NCBI RefSeq assembly: GCF_003334255.1
Contig: NZ_QOWU01000023.1
Strand: one strand, 5' to 3'
Origin: Escherichia coli
GTDB taxonomy: Bacteria; Pseudomonadota; Gammaproteobacteria; Enterobacterales; Enterobacteriaceae
DNA: 64,000 bases
Notes under the pieces: generated by a model
What the model was told of the DNA's origin: nothing
The model's input: the letters and a program-made list of their open reading frames with translations, nothing else
The model's database searches: none
In this document: piece by piece, positions 53,026 to 57,852 of the stretch
Position numbering within the stretch: the stretch's first letter is position 1
How the letters are laid out: every line of letters starts with the position of its first letter
Program-made: the position numbers and the translations under genes

Positions 53026-54117
53026 ATGGGATTCAAATGCGGTATCGTCGGTTTGCCCAACGTCGGGAAATCTACCCTGTTCAACGCGCTGACCAAAGCC
53101 GGTATTGAAGCGGCCAACTTTCCATTCTGCACCATTGAGCCGAACACAGGCGTCGTACCAATGCCTGATCCTCGCCTGGATCAACTGGCTGAAATCGTAA
53201 AACCGCAGCGTACGCTTCCCACGACCATGGAATTTGTCGATATCGCCGGTCTGGTAAAAGGCGCATCGAAAGGCGAAGGTCTGGGTAACCAGTTCCTGAC
53301 CAACATCCGTGAAACCGAAGCGATCGGTCACGTTGTTCGCTGCTTTGAAAATGACAACATCATTCACGTTTCCGGCAAAGTTAACCCGGCTGACGATATT
53401 GAAGTTATCAACACCGAACTGGCGCTGGCAGACCTCGACACCTGCGAACGTGCGATTCATCGCGTACAGAAGAAAGCCAAAGGTGGCGATAAAGACGCGA
53501 AAGCTGAGCTGGCGGTCCTGGAAAAATGCCTGCCCCAGTTGGAAAATGCAGGTATGCTGCGCGCGCTGGATTTAAGCGCTGAAGAGAAAGCGGCTATTCG
53601 TTACCTGAGCTTCCTGACGCTGAAACCAACAATGTACATCGCCAACGTCAACGAAGACGGTTTTGAAAACAACCCATATCTTGACCAGGTGCGTGAAATC
53701 GCGGCGAAAGAAGGTTCTGTTGTGGTTCCGGTTTGTGCTGCTGTTGAAGCAGACATTGCCGAACTGGACGACGAAGAACGTGACGAGTTTATGCAGGAGC
53801 TTGGGCTGGAAGAGCCGGGCCTGAACCGTGTGATCCGTGCCGGTTATAAACTGCTGAACCTGCAAACTTACTTCACCGCTGGGGTGAAAGAAGTGCGTGC
53901 ATGGACCATTCCGGTTGGAGCAACCGCGCCGCAGGCAGCGGGCAAAATCCATACTGATTTTGAAAAAGGCTTTATCCGTGCACAAACCATCTCGTTTGAA
54001 GATTTCATCACTTACAAAGGTGAACAAGGCGCGAAAGAAGCAGGCAAAATGCGTGCAGAAGGTAAAGATTACATCGTGAAAGATGGCGATGTGATGAACT
54101 TCCTTTTCAACGTCTAA
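53026..54117 (+). CDS. ychF: Obg-like ribosome-binding ATPase YchF
   Basis: 363 aa; P-loop GLPNVGKST. Confidence 0.93.
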
Positions 54118-54173
54118 TTAATTTATTGTCTCATGAGGTTTCGCTAAATCTCATGAAGAGCGCAAAAGTATAT

Positions 54174-54201
54174 AAAATCCACGCAATTGCGTGGATTTTT
54201 C
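54174..54201 (+). terminator. ychF rho-independent terminator
   Basis: aaatccacgc-aatt-gcgtggattt hairpin followed by a T-run. Confidence 0.75.
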
Positions 54202-54885
54202 ATTTCACCGAGTCCTAATCATTCTTGTAACATCCTACACTTTTGTGCTTATTGCCTATAGTGAACCACGAGAATAATTAAAGACATAAGTGTTCAGATG
54301 ACGGATATCTCATTAGCAGTGATATAACGTAAGTTTTTGTATCACTACACATCAGCCCCCTTCACAGCTGATCAAAATTGATCACGCTCCAATATGCTGG
54401 CAAGATGAAAATGATAACCAGTAGCACAATAACAACGATAGGCCAGAAAACCCATTGACCAAAAATGAATATCGATGTTTTTTGCTTTTTCTTATTAGTA
54501 ATGCAAAAATGGCGCATATTGTTTTTGTTATGCAGATACATCAAGCGAAATTCCCATAACTAATTAGGATTATTACAAAAAATCTTCACCAAATTTTTTA
54601 ACCGCTGTTTGTTGTAATATTTTTGCCATATTTATAGTAACGAATTGGAATAAGTAACGACAACTTAGGGAATAACTCGATATAAACTCACCTTTGTAAG
54701 GGGGATGTTAAATATATATTAATTCCTGTGTTCCTGATTTTGCCCGGTAATAGAGAATTATTCTCTGAGAAGCTCATCATGATTGCACCATACAAATATC
54801 ATGATGATAAGAGGATATTATTCATTGATTTAAACAAAATGACAAAATCCATAGACCCATAGTCTGGGTACTATATAGGAGTGGT

Positions 54886-57753
54886 ATGGGCATCAAACAA
54901 CACAATGGGAATACCAAAGCAGATCGTCTCGCTGAATTAAAAATCCGTTCGCCCTCAATTCAACTGATAAAATTTGGCGCTATTGGTTTGAATGCAATTA
55001 TCTTTTCCCCCCTGCTGATAGCTGCTGATACAGGAAGTCAATATGGCACCAATATTACTATTAATGATGGTGACAGAATTACAGGAGATACCGCCGATCC
55101 ATCAGGAAACCTCTATGGTGTAATGACCCCAGCAGGAAACACGCCTGGCAATATCAACCTGGGTAATGATGTCACCGTCAATGTCAACGACGCCTCTGGA
55201 TATGCAAAAGGAATCATTATTCAGGGCAAAAACAGCTCCCTGACAGCTAACCGACTCACAGTAGATGTTGTTGGTCAAACCTCTGCCATCGGCATTAACT
55301 TAATTGGTGACTATACCCATGCTGACTTAGGCACAGGCAGCACCATTAAGAGTAACGATGACGGCATCATTATTGGGCATAGCTCAACACTAACAGCCAC
55401 TCAATTCACCATTGAAAACTCGAACGGTATAGGCCTAACCATCAATGACTATGGCACCAGTGTCGATCTTGGAAGCGGAAGTAAAATCACGACCGATGGA
55501 AGTACAGGTGTTTATATCGGTGGTCTCAACGGCAATAACGCCAATGGTGCTGCGCGTTTTACGGCTACAGACCTGACAATCGATGTTCAGGGCTACAGCG
55601 CCATGGGGATAAACGTACAGAAAAACTCTGTTGTCGATCTCGGAACAAACAGTACCATTAAAACCAATGGCGATAATGCTCACGGCCTCTGGAGCTTTGG
55701 CCAGGTTAGCGCGAATGCACTCACTGTTGATGTAACTGGAGCCGCGGCCAATGGCGTCGAAGTTCGTGGTGGTACAACCACTATCGGTGCAGATAGCCAT
55801 ATTTCTTCCGCGCAGGGCGGTGGCCTCGTCACCAGTGGTTCAGACGCGATAATCAATTTTACTGGCACGGCAGCGCAACGAAACAGCATCTTTTCCGGCG
55901 GTTCTTATGGTGCCTCGGCCCAGACGGCAACGGCTGTTGTCAACATGCAAAATACCGATATTACAGTTGATCGTAATGGCAGTCTGGCGCTGGGTTTGTG
56001 GGCTCTCAGCGGCGGTAGAATAACCGGAGACAGTTTGGCTATCACCGGCGCGGCAGGAGCCAGGGGAATTTATGCCATGACCAACAGCCAGATCGACCTC
56101 ACGAGCGATCTGGTCATTGATATGAGTACACCCGACCAGATGGCCATCGCAACGCAACATGACGATGGTTATGCCGCCAGCCGCATCAACGCCTCGGGTC
56201 GTATGCTTATCAACGGTAGCGTTCTTTCCAAAGGTGGGCTAATCAATCTGGATATGCACCCTGGGTCGGTTTGGACAGGTTCCTCCCTCAGCGATAATGT
56301 CAATGGCGGAAAACTGGACGTTGCAATGAATAACAGCGTCTGGAACGTAACAAGTAATTCTAATCTCGACACGCTGGCGCTGAGCCATTCAACTGTCGAT
56401 TTTGCCAGCCACGGGTCAACTGCCGGCACATTTGCCACATTAAACGTAGAGAACCTGAGCGGTAACAGTACCTTTATTATGCGTGCTGATGTTGTTGGCG
56501 AGGGTAATGGCGTTAATAATAAAGGGGATTTATTGAATATCAGCGGGAGTAGTGCTGGTAATCACGTATTGGCTATCCGCAACCAGGGCAGCGAGGCCAC
56601 AACGGGAAATGAAGTTCTGACAGTGGTAAAAACCACTGACGGCGCGGCCTCGTTCAGCGCGTCTTCTCAGGTTGAGTTGGGGGGATATCTGTACGATGTG
56701 CGTAAAAATGGCACTAACTGGGAGCTTTACGCTTCCGGGACAGTTCCGGAACCGACTCCTAATCCTGAACCCACACCAGCTCCCGCTCAGCCTCCCATAG
56801 TCAACCCCGATCCTACGCCTGAACCCGCTCCCACGCCTAAACCCACCACGACCGCAGATGCTGGCGGCAATTATCTCAATGTCGGTTACTTATTGAACTA
56901 TGTTGAAAACCGTACGCTGATGCAACGGATGGGTGACCTGCGAAATCAGAGTAAAGACGGTAATATCTGGTTGCGCAGTTATGGGGGAAGCCTGGACTCC
57001 TTTGCCAGTGGCAAACTGAGCGGCTTTGACATGGGTTACAGCGGTATCCAGTTTGGTGGGGATAAACGTCTCTCTGATGTAATGCCGTTGTATGTCGGTC
57101 TGTATATTGGCTCAACACATGCATCGCCGGACTATAGCGGAGGCGACGGTACCGCACGTTCAGACTACATGGGAATGTACGCCAGTTACATGGCACAAAA
57201 CGGTTTTTACAGCGATCTCGTTATAAAAGCATCGCGCCAGAAAAATAGTTTCCACGTACTGGACAGTCAGAACAACGGCGTTAACGCCAACGGCACTGCG
57301 AATGGAATGAGCATCTCCCTGGAAGCCGGGCAGAGGTTCAACCTGTCCCCTACTGGTTATGGGTTCTATATAGAGCCGCAAACCCAGCTTACATACAGCC
57401 ACCAGAATGAGATGACTATGAAGGCGAGTAATGGCCTCAATATACATCTGAATCACTACGAATCGCTGCTGGGGCGTGCCAGCATGATACTGGGGTATGA
57501 CATCACCGCAGGCAACAGCCAGCTGAATGTCTATGTGAAGACTGGCGCTATCCGCGAGTTTTCAGGGGATACCGAATATCTGTTGAACAACTCCCGGGAG
57601 AAGTACAGTTTCAAAGGTAATGGCTGGAATAACGGCGTGGGAGTCAGTGCACAGTATAACAAACAGCACACATTCTATCTCGAAGCGGATTACACGCAGG
57701 GTAACCTCTTTGATCAGAAGCAAGTCAACGGAGGATATCGCTTCAGCTTTTAA
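54886..57753 (+). CDS. ycgV: Autotransporter adhesin-like protein YcgV
   Basis: 955 aa; Gly/Thr-rich beta-helix passenger, Pro-rich linker PEPTPNPEPTPAPAQPP, C-terminal beta-barrel ending in F; AGGAG Shine-Dalgarno before ATG. Confidence 0.85.
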   Translation: MGIKQHNGNTKADRLAELKIRSPSIQLIKFGAIGLNAIIFSPLLIAADTGSQYGTNITINDGDRITGDTADPSGNLYGVMTPAGNTPGNINLGNDVTVNVNDASGYAKGIIIQGKNSSLTANRLTVDVVGQTSAIGINLIGDYTHADLGTGSTIKSNDDGIIIGHSSTLTATQFTIENSNGIGLTINDYGTSVDLGSGSKITTDGSTGVYIGGLNGNNANGAARFTATDLTIDVQGYSAMGINVQKNSVVDLGTNSTIKTNGDNAHGLWSFGQVSANALTVDVTGAAANGVEVRGGTTTIGADSHISSAQGGGLVTSGSDAIINFTGTAAQRNSIFSGGSYGASAQTATAVVNMQNTDITVDRNGSLALGLWALSGGRITGDSLAITGAAGARGIYAMTNSQIDLTSDLVIDMSTPDQMAIATQHDDGYAASRINASGRMLINGSVLSKGGLINLDMHPGSVWTGSSLSDNVNGGKLDVAMNNSVWNVTSNSNLDTLALSHSTVDFASHGSTAGTFATLNVENLSGNSTFIMRADVVGEGNGVNNKGDLLNISGSSAGNHVLAIRNQGSEATTGNEVLTVVKTTDGAASFSASSQVELGGYLYDVRKNGTNWELYASGTVPEPTPNPEPTPAPAQPPIVNPDPTPEPAPTPKPTTTADAGGNYLNVGYLLNYVENRTLMQRMGDLRNQSKDGNIWLRSYGGSLDSFASGKLSGFDMGYSGIQFGGDKRLSDVMPLYVGLYIGSTHASPDYSGGDGTARSDYMGMYASYMAQNGFYSDLVIKASRQKNSFHVLDSQNNGVNANGTANGMSISLEAGQRFNLSPTGYGFYIEPQTQLTYSHQNEMTMKASNGLNIHLNHYESLLGRASMILGYDITAGNSQLNVYVKTGAIREFSGDTEYLLNNSREKYSFKGNGWNNGVGVSAQYNKQHTFYLEADYTQGNLFDQKQVNGGYRFSF

Positions 57754-57852
57754 GTGCGGGATAGACAAGCCCTTAAACGATGCTGAAAATTGTTAGCGTG
57801 CGCCGGAATGAAATACAGATCACTCTGATGTATCAGAAATCGTTTCTGTCTT

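Follow-up and report, generated by a model that had tools for sequence, protein, structure and literature searches.

Relationship to described systems

The closest described relatives of the YcgV protein are the Group 4 "biofilm-forming" autotransporters and SAATs (Ag43, AIDA-I, TibA and YpjA), together with pertactin, BrkA, Vag8 and the EspP barrel, of which the last four are the relatives with solved structures. YcgV shares with them a putative signal peptide, a beta-helix-type passenger, a pertactin-like autochaperone, a linker and a PF03797 barrel; it differs in the unusual length of its Pro-rich linker, and its phylogenetic placement is near the SAATs (Group 4, PMC9289746). A role in adhesion and biofilm formation and the Group 4 classification have both been reported (PMC3796261, PMC9289746). 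The DNA upstream of the gene has been described as well: Panyukov, Ozoline and co-workers list the ycgV/ychF spacer itself as one of 78 "promoter islands", H-NS-bound stretches in horizontally acquired DNA, and H-NS binds it "according to all studies" (PMC3661553). Like those islands it is AT-rich and adjoins a gene that has been called foreign.

The spacer also holds a small minus-strand ORF. Small membrane proteins that have been validated in E. coli, and its type I toxins, such as the Ldr, TisB, ShoB and YohP classes, are conserved throughout the species and usually in more than one genus, are under purifying selection and are annotated in MG1655. The small ORF is like them in size (under 60–85 aa), in its one hydrophobic helix and in its basic flank, but it is locus-restricted, neutral, length-polymorphic and unannotated.

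The ychF-dhaR interval

The window is a 64,000-nucleotide stretch of E. coli DNA, and all positions given here refer to it. The interval studied is an accessory module already known in E. coli, the AT-rich spacer together with ycgV, which sits between two core genes, ychF and dhaR. Its left part is organized as follows.

53026–54117, plus strand: ychF, redox-regulated ATPase, a conserved core gene and the spacer's left boundary (ORF list; annotation of MG1655 and other strains)
54118–54885, no strand: ychF-ycgV spacer, 768 bp, 33.7% G+C, accessory DNA travelling with ycgV (composition; PMC3661553 Table 1)
54174–54199, no strand: palindromic hairpin, perfect 13+13, with A/T runs on both sides (terminator scan, inverted-repeat search)

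This hairpin, which can function in either direction, is the ychF terminator; two Rfam Leu_leader hits on it (31–33 bits versus a gathering score of 50) were set aside as sub-threshold hairpin artefacts. In genomes that lack ycgV (ST131 type) homology stops at ~54206, just past this hairpin, and they align to query positions 1–107 only; in ST131 a 29-kb integrase/retron island occupies the ychF-dhaR interval in place of the ycgV module. The module is found in ~4,100 of 5,426 complete E. coli genomes and is missing or replaced in about one quarter of them. The Citrobacter ycgV orthologue (80% identity) adjoins a porin gene and so has a different context. The window carries the K-12 arrangement, with the same neighbours pth-ychF and dhaR-dhaKLM on the two sides, and only two bases, at 54301 and 58936, differ from MG1655 in the 10-kb neighbourhood.

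The ycgV gene and its product

The features of the gene and its protein are these.

54886–57753, plus strand: ycgV (b1202), type Va autotransporter adhesin, 955 aa (ORF list, profile matches, MG1655 comparison)
About aa 1–47, plus strand: putative long signal peptide, a charged n-region and then FGAIGLNAIIFSPLLIAAD (judged by eye)
aa 494–615 (56365–56730), plus strand: pertactin-like autochaperone (Pfam PF03212 Pertactin, 1.4e-37)
aa 619–655 (56740–56850), plus strand: Pro-rich linker (sequence composition)
aa 694–935 (56965–57690), plus strand: beta-barrel (Pfam PF03797 Autotransporter beta-domain, 1.6e-37)

Over all 2,868 bp ycgV shows no nucleotide difference from E. coli K-12 MG1655 b1202, the putative autotransporter adhesin gene. 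The passenger, Pro-rich linker and beta-barrel organization proposed in the original prediction is borne out by the Pfam matches, by a TIGR01414 profile match (2.1e-107, 360 bits against a cutoff of 16) and by PDB matches to the BrkA and EspP barrels and to pertactin (1DAB, aligned to aa 478–616). YcgV has the hallmarks of type Va proteins, a C-terminal 12-strand barrel and a passenger that ends in a pertactin-like autochaperone followed by a linker; no Pfam family covers the passenger's first ~490 residues. By analogy with the family, the N-terminus, which fits a Sec signal peptide by eye, would direct passage through Sec, the 12-strand barrel would insert into the outer membrane, and the passenger would be threaded out, folding from the autochaperone segment, and be retained at the surface as an adhesin and biofilm factor.

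The AT-rich spacer and its reported regulators

Two published regulatory features can be placed on the spacer.

54428–54728, no strand: "promoter island" 1255333_301 (PMC3661553 Table 1), covering the 5' two-thirds of the small ORF and the DNA upstream of it
54760–54885, plus strand: ycgV promoter-proximal fragment, 126 bp, which binds the LysR-type regulator YbdO by EMSA in an APEC strain (PMC11681634 primers located in the window)

The island placement is our own conversion: it takes the published coordinates to be those of U00096.2 and shifts them by +777 to reach NC_000913.3. At 33.7% against ~50% in the flanking genes, the spacer's G+C content agrees with the long AT-rich upstream region that had been noted from the sequence, and its proposed silencing by H-NS agrees with the published ChIP compilations, in which H-NS occupancy is reported in all three data sets compiled; almost no full-length transcripts are reported from promoter-island DNA here (PMC3661553). 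The spacer/ycgV module resembles a xenogeneic locus in that the spacer has a higher AT content than the genome and the distribution is accessory. The spacer shows no enrichment of the high-affinity H-NS motif TCGATAAATT, and a sigma-70 consensus scan found one minus-strand site, fewer than in shuffled sequence and therefore uninformative. YbdO action on ycgV was reported from EMSA and RT-qPCR (PMC11681634). From this literature, H-NS coating of the spacer as a promoter island would keep ycgV silent under laboratory conditions, and YbdO at the proximal promoter would add to the repression. The gene itself has a Shine-Dalgarno sequence, AGGAG, at 54877–54881 (anti-SD pairing -6.9 kcal/mol), and the ycgV-proximal ~270 bp is the only part of the spacer with similarity patches upstream of the Citrobacter orthologue. 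The gene and the H-NS-bound DNA ahead of it are both known already at the level of textbook annotation, and the present analysis adds nothing to this.

A small minus-strand ORF in the spacer

The small ORF and two features inside it lie in the left half of the spacer.

54362–54544, minus strand: small ORF, K-12 form, 59 aa from the ATG at 54541 (MG1655 plus strand, 1256297–1256476) or 60 from the TTG at 54544, with a Lys-rich N-terminus and one hydrophobic helix
54396–54397, no strand: point at which 75 bp (25 codons, in frame) that other E. coli carry are deleted (alignments, genome census)
54369–54384, no strand: 16-bp site TGATCAAAATTGATCA with the spacer's only two GATC sites, 10 bp apart (MG1655 1256455–1256468), at the small ORF's 3' end

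The ORF, its Lys-rich N-terminus and its transmembrane segment (WVFWPIVVIVLLVIIFILPAYW) are present as originally predicted. The accompanying statement that it has no convincing Shine-Dalgarno sequence was roughly right, with the reservation that a GGGA lies 10 nt upstream of the ATG, where the anti-SD pairing of -4.2 kcal/mol is like that of pth and ychF but at long spacing. This weak GGGA and an extended -10-like sequence (TGTAATAAT) upstream, and the hairpin terminator downstream, make expression of the ORF physically possible. It is unannotated in all RefSeq records sampled, including MG1655 (NC_000913.3), and by PGAP, and it matches no Pfam, NCBIfam or PHROG family.

Size, single helix and basic N-terminus recall the Ldr-, TisB- or ShoB-type toxins, and a type I toxin, that is a small hydrophobic membrane-damaging peptide restrained by an antisense RNA, was considered. 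This is most improbable, in view of the lack of a toxin-family match in Pfam, NCBIfam and PHROGs, of an Rfam antitoxin RNA (only the sub-threshold hairpin artefacts were seen) and of a conserved antisense element, the flanks being the most variable part of the spacer; the neutral evolution and frequent truncation described below also argue against it.

The length of the ORF is no more than chance would give, since ORFs of at least 59 codons occur in 50% of dinucleotide shuffles of the spacer and of at least 84 codons in 10%. The hydrophobicity of its helix argues against pure chance: an ORF of at least 59 aa with a 19-residue Kyte-Doolittle window of at least 2.8 occurs in only 0.17–0.25% of shuffles, even with local composition preserved, and no other ORF of 40–100 aa in any of the six frames of the 64-kb window reaches such a value. 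In 71% of the helix codons the second position is T. Hydrophobicity and periodicity so far beyond the shuffles are among the points that favour a genuine lineage-specific small inner-membrane protein, with a cytoplasmic N-terminus and one helix in K-12 (two in the longest form, see below), made when H-NS silencing is lifted. The basic N-terminus obeys the positive-inside rule, and the weak Shine-Dalgarno sequence and downstream terminator fit such a protein as well; its absence from the curated MG1655 annotation and the near lack of full-length transcripts reported from the surrounding DNA (PMC3661553) do not.

Distribution and length forms of the small ORF

Outside the E. coli/Shigella locus no relative of the small ORF was found in 5.8 billion clusters or in a full scan of 1.84 billion representative proteins, which counts against a membrane-protein gene. 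One weak phmmer match (P0096) is a repeat protein that shares a chance "LPGSHV.T..GG" string and was rejected. There is no trace of the ORF upstream of the Citrobacter ycgV orthologue, and no counterpart upstream of the Leminorella ycgV homologues.

The E. coli alleles have only codons 1–48 in common, and downstream of these there are three major length forms: 84 aa in ~278 genomes (strain 042 has this form), where a codon is CAA (Gln); 67 aa in ~1,848, where it is TAA, a premature stop; and 59 aa in ~1,977, where the segment is deleted. The last is the type of K-12 and of the window. The 75-bp segment that it lacks is flanked by CTGGCrAGA direct repeats and carries a second hydrophobic stretch and, in most strains, the TAA stop. 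Judged from the alignments, the K-12 ORF is a derived, presumably slipped, deletion allele of a longer ORF, in which the frame was retained by happenstance; the fact that the deletion is in frame was also counted in favour of a membrane protein. A single scan of genome contigs with YcgV as the query gave no Escherichia species other than contaminant contigs, and so no outgroup for the CAA/TAA polymorphism. Frameshifted variants also occur within E. coli, and one strain, EC261, carries an IS3 in the ORF. Three length forms, each in hundreds to thousands of genomes, and an insertion of this kind count against a working membrane-protein gene.

Substitution patterns in the small ORF

The ten distinct E. 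coli alleles contain 8 synonymous and 21 non-synonymous codon variants, when neutrality predicts 20–27% synonymous, and the small ORF has a pN/pS of 1.05 versus 0.00 for the adjacent ychF, whose last 315 nt have no non-synonymous differences among the 8 strains compared. Variants fall on the three codon positions as ~13:7:8, with no third-position excess, and the single nonsense variant among 29 equals the neutral 4%. Nucleotide diversity in the ORF (0.036) lies between the values for the flanking non-coding DNA (0.055 and 0.025). Two alternative frames have a pN/pS of 0.39; this arises because the variants cluster at codon position 1 of the small-ORF frame, and neither alternative frame holds an ORF.

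Two further observations were weighed in favour of a membrane protein. Codons 1–48 are open in 10 of 10 alleles, for which the neutral probability of finding no stop is ~0.3, and the substitutions within the helix are conservative, remaining hydrophobic (V/I/L/A), as the genetic code makes likely anyway at NTN codons. Selection for shortness and hydrophobicity only would explain the drift of amino-acid identity. With a pN/pS near 1, no third-position excess and no homologue elsewhere, we nevertheless consider a genuine inner-membrane protein unlikely. A related reading is that this is a very young E. coli-specific membrane-protein gene, born or captured in the H-NS-coated promoter island, whose 84-, 67- and 59-aa forms are segregating and whose expression, on relief of silencing, runs divergently to that of ycgV. 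This is quite unlikely; if true, it would offer a natural allelic series for the rise and decay of hydrophobic micro-proteins.

Restriction to E. coli and Shigella, the three length forms and the non-coding-like evolution indicate that the small ORF is probably not a working gene. Its candidacy as one, implied by the original prediction, thus did not hold up, and conservation of its frame in related genomes was largely absent, as it is missing upstream of Citrobacter ycgV and only 48 codons are common within E. coli; purifying selection, the other mark of small-protein genes, is likewise lacking. Restriction to the locus, the neutral rate of amino-acid change and the allelic series show that the ORF is not kept by selection. 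It may have arisen by accident in AT-rich DNA, or it may be what is left of a short membrane-protein gene that came in with the island and is decaying, and we regard these as equally likely. Overall, we put at roughly three in four the probability that the interval is the known spacer and ycgV module, silenced by H-NS, with a small ORF that has no selective maintenance and is either accidental or a relic. The useful outcome is therefore a negative one: an attractive "small membrane protein" of K-12 is the deletion allele of a species-restricted, neutrally drifting ORF, and its sequence appearance alone does not warrant an entry in small-protein catalogues.

The palindrome at the 3' end and allelic variation

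The DNA of the small ORF might act only in cis, with the peptide irrelevant, if transcription or translation through it, H-NS nucleation or the GATC pair modulated ycgV. It overlaps the published promoter island, and in all other alleles sampled, and in most strains, site 54369–54384 is a perfect 16-bp palindrome (TGATCAATATTGATCA) with its two GATC sites 10 bp apart; in addition, ycgV appears in a list of genes whose GATC sites differ in methylation (bioRxiv 10.1101/2022.12.14.520158). In K-12, however, the palindrome is broken, and O157:H7 lacks one GATC. The 75-bp deletion here affects about half of the strains, and upstream of the Citrobacter orthologue the small-ORF segment is not conserved, the similarity patches there being confined to the ycgV-proximal part. 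A role in cis is accordingly very unlikely, and the preferred reading remains that of an unselected ORF in a known accessory module. The ychF-dhaR interval, as a swap site for the ycgV module and the 29-kb defence island, and the allelic series of 84, 67 and 59 aa are of minor population-genomic interest.

Organization of the ychF-ycgV region

Between approximately 52 and 60 kb the window carries, in reverse complement, the pth-ychF-ycgV-dhaR region of E. coli K-12. The 10 kb compared with MG1655 (NC_000913.3; MG1655 coordinate = 1310838 - window coordinate) contain only two base differences, at 54301 and 58936; the window is of the K-12 lineage yet not exactly NC_000913.3, and its ycgV is nucleotide-identical to b1202. 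The spacer, ycgV, and the small ORF with its Lys-rich start and helix, all described in the original prediction, are present as it stated them:

to 54117: end of ychF
54118-54885: spacer, 768 bp, 33.7% G+C
54174-54199: ychF terminator hairpin, bidirectional
54369-54384: GATC pair TGATCAAAATTGATCA, the spacer's only two GATC sites, 10 bp apart
54544 to 54362, minus strand: small ORF, 60 codons from TTG, 59 from the ATG at 54541
within the small ORF, minus strand: helix WVFWPIVVIVLLVIIFILPAYW, following the Lys-rich start
54886-57753: ycgV, encoding 955 amino acids

Two sub-threshold matches to Rfam Leu_leader, on both strands of 54132-54290 (31-33 bits against a gathering score of 50), are positioned over the ychF terminator hairpins and were read as hairpin and U-run artefacts.

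An exchangeable interval between ychF and dhaR

At least 80% of the spacer is present in 4,096 of 5,426 complete E. coli genomes, and about 600 match only its first 107 bases, a limit that lies just beyond the ychF terminator hairpin. The interval between ychF and dhaR (54207-57850) is a swap site that holds the spacer and ycgV in K-12-type strains and an island in ST131; the latter (compared sequence L015, 1-31169) is 29 kb long and carries two integrases (tyrosine recombinases), IS elements, a retron Ec67-type reverse transcriptase and an ABC-three-component system. When one genome per species was scanned, YcgV orthologues were found only in a Citrobacter MAG (80% identity), where a gene for an OmpC/PhoE-like porin, and not ychF, lies immediately upstream (L010, 1261-2472 and 2947-5862), and in Leminorella grimontii, whose two paralogues (60% and 52%) are separated by about 10 kb (L011, L012). 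The scan additionally gave two contigs from Actinomycetota assemblies, JAEWQO010000123.1 of an "Actinomycetes bacterium" MAG (L013) and NODE_453 of Nocardioides malaquae (L014); both are 99.8-100% identical to the E. coli K-12-type locus and are almost certainly E. coli contamination.

The small ORF

As an open reading frame the small ORF is genuine; judged by its distribution, polymorphism and substitution pattern, all of which speak against its proposed status as a gene candidate, it is not a maintained gene. It is annotated neither in MG1655 nor by PGAP in any record sampled, and has no family match in Pfam, NCBIfam or PHROG. Among 5.8 billion clusters, a word-indexed search gave 94 matches, of which all those with a source name are from E. 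coli or Shigella, and phmmer, run in full against 1.84 billion representatives, gave only variants of the same locus and one chance repeat match. Upstream of the Citrobacter ycgV orthologue, the DNA is similar only in patches that lie no more than about 270 bp from the start codon, and tblastn found no small ORF there; conservation of the frame in related genomes, which had been proposed as a check, thus does not extend beyond E. coli and Shigella.

Many strains have 75 extra bases inside the ORF, which then encodes MYLHNKNNMSHFCITNKKKQKTSIFIFDQWIFWHIVIIVILVIIFILPGSHVITLFGGFICWILPFRQVLFSPAYWSVINIDQL, 84 amino acids long and with two hydrophobic stretches; a TAA in place of CAA at codon 68 ends the product after ...ILPFR, at 67 amino acids. 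Exactly those 25 codons are missing from the form found in K-12 and in the window, which rejoins the same C-terminus; the missing segment is flanked by CTGGCGAGA / CTGGCAAGA. Because every deletion-type spacer has an identity of at least 99% and those with the insert lie between 94.8 and 98.5%, we infer that the 75-bp deletion is derived and arose on the TAA background; what K-12 carries is a secondary deletion allele. In our census the TAA-type segment occurs in 1,848 genomes and the CAA type in 278, strain 042 among them, and the deletion type in approximately 1,977, the last counted indirectly from the band of at least 99% identity. Some complete genomes have frameshifted variants, strain EC261 (L019, 1-497) carries an IS3 inside the ORF at the 75-bp segment, and strain YZMc17-1 (H1) an IS1 in the spacer between ychF and ycgV.

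Among eight alleles spread across the identity range, pN/pS of the small ORF frame is 1.05, and that of the adjacent 315 nt of ychF is 0.00 (197 synonymous and no non-synonymous pairwise differences). Nucleotide diversity in the ORF (0.036) falls between those of its non-coding flanks (0.055 and 0.025). Ten distinct alleles contain 29 codon variants, 8 synonymous and 21 non-synonymous (neutral expectation 20-27% synonymous), distributed about 13:7:8 over codon positions 1:2:3, and the single nonsense variant among the 29 equals the expected 4%. By these measures the substitution pattern is that of unconstrained DNA.

Several features point the other way. The length of the ORF is unremarkable, as 50% of shuffles contain one of at least 59 codons; one that also has a 19-residue Kyte-Doolittle window of at least 2.8 arises in only 0.25% of dinucleotide shuffles and 0.17% of those in which local composition is preserved, and it is the only such hydrophobic ORF in the six frames of the whole window. 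Within the helix, 71% of codons have T at position 2, compared with 24% at position 1 and 38% at position 3, a periodicity resembling that of a sequence that codes, or once coded, for a membrane segment. A weak GGGA (-4.2 kcal/mol) 10 nt upstream, an extended -10-like TGTAATAAT found by eye about 30 nt upstream and a bidirectional hairpin downstream make occasional expression conceivable. A decaying relic and an accident of AT-rich DNA are about equally good accounts of the ORF's origin.

The YcgV protein

Pfam places a Pertactin domain at amino acids 494-615 of YcgV (1.4e-37) and an Autotransporter beta-domain at 694-935 (1.6e-37); between them, weak proline-repeat matches fall on TVPEPTPNPEPTPAPAQPPIVNPDPTPEPAPTPKPTT (619-655). 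TIGR01414 matches with 360 bits, and among solved structures the nearest chains are those of Vag8, the BrkA and EspP barrels, and pertactin. At the N-terminus a hydrophobic core comes after a long charged stretch, and AGGAG lies 4 nt upstream of the ATG. From what is established for type Va proteins, YcgV would be exported through Sec, its barrel would insert and the passenger then thread through, folding from the autochaperone. Reviews put YcgV in Group 4, the biofilm-forming autotransporters, and cite a role in adhesion and biofilm formation when it is expressed (PMC9289746, PMC3796261). The first 312 nt of the gene (54886-55197; putative signal peptide and passenger start) are far more relaxed among eight strains than adjacent ychF (pN/pS 0.80 versus 0.00). 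In O157:H7 PNUSAE145590 (L005, 1162-1476) ycgV is annotated as an incomplete, truncated pseudogene ([quoted passage not shown]).

Regulatory features of the spacer

Neither ycgV nor the putatively silenced spacer in front of it is new. The suggestion that the upstream region is H-NS-silenced is supported by published binding data: "ycgV/ychF 1255333_301" is one of 78 promoter islands, is marked "A" (bound by H-NS in the data sets of Grainger, Kahramanoglou and Oshima), and adjoins a gene called foreign (PMC3661553). If its coordinates are those of U00096.2, with our offset of +777, this island corresponds to 54428-54728, a stretch that takes in the 5' two-thirds of the small ORF. We found no enrichment of the H-NS high-affinity motif in the spacer. 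YbdO binds a 126-bp fragment, whose primers we located at 54760-54885, and represses ycgV in an APEC strain (PMC11681634), and a genomic-SELEX paper reports a minor-sigma peak within the spacer.

The GATC pair at 54369-54384 is a possible protein or SeqA/Dam site, and ycgV is among the genes with differentially methylated GATC sites in a preprint (bioRxiv 10.1101/2022.12.14.520158). In every allele sampled other than that of the window the site is a perfect 16-bp palindrome, TGATCAATATTGATCA; the O157:H7 allele loses one GATC.
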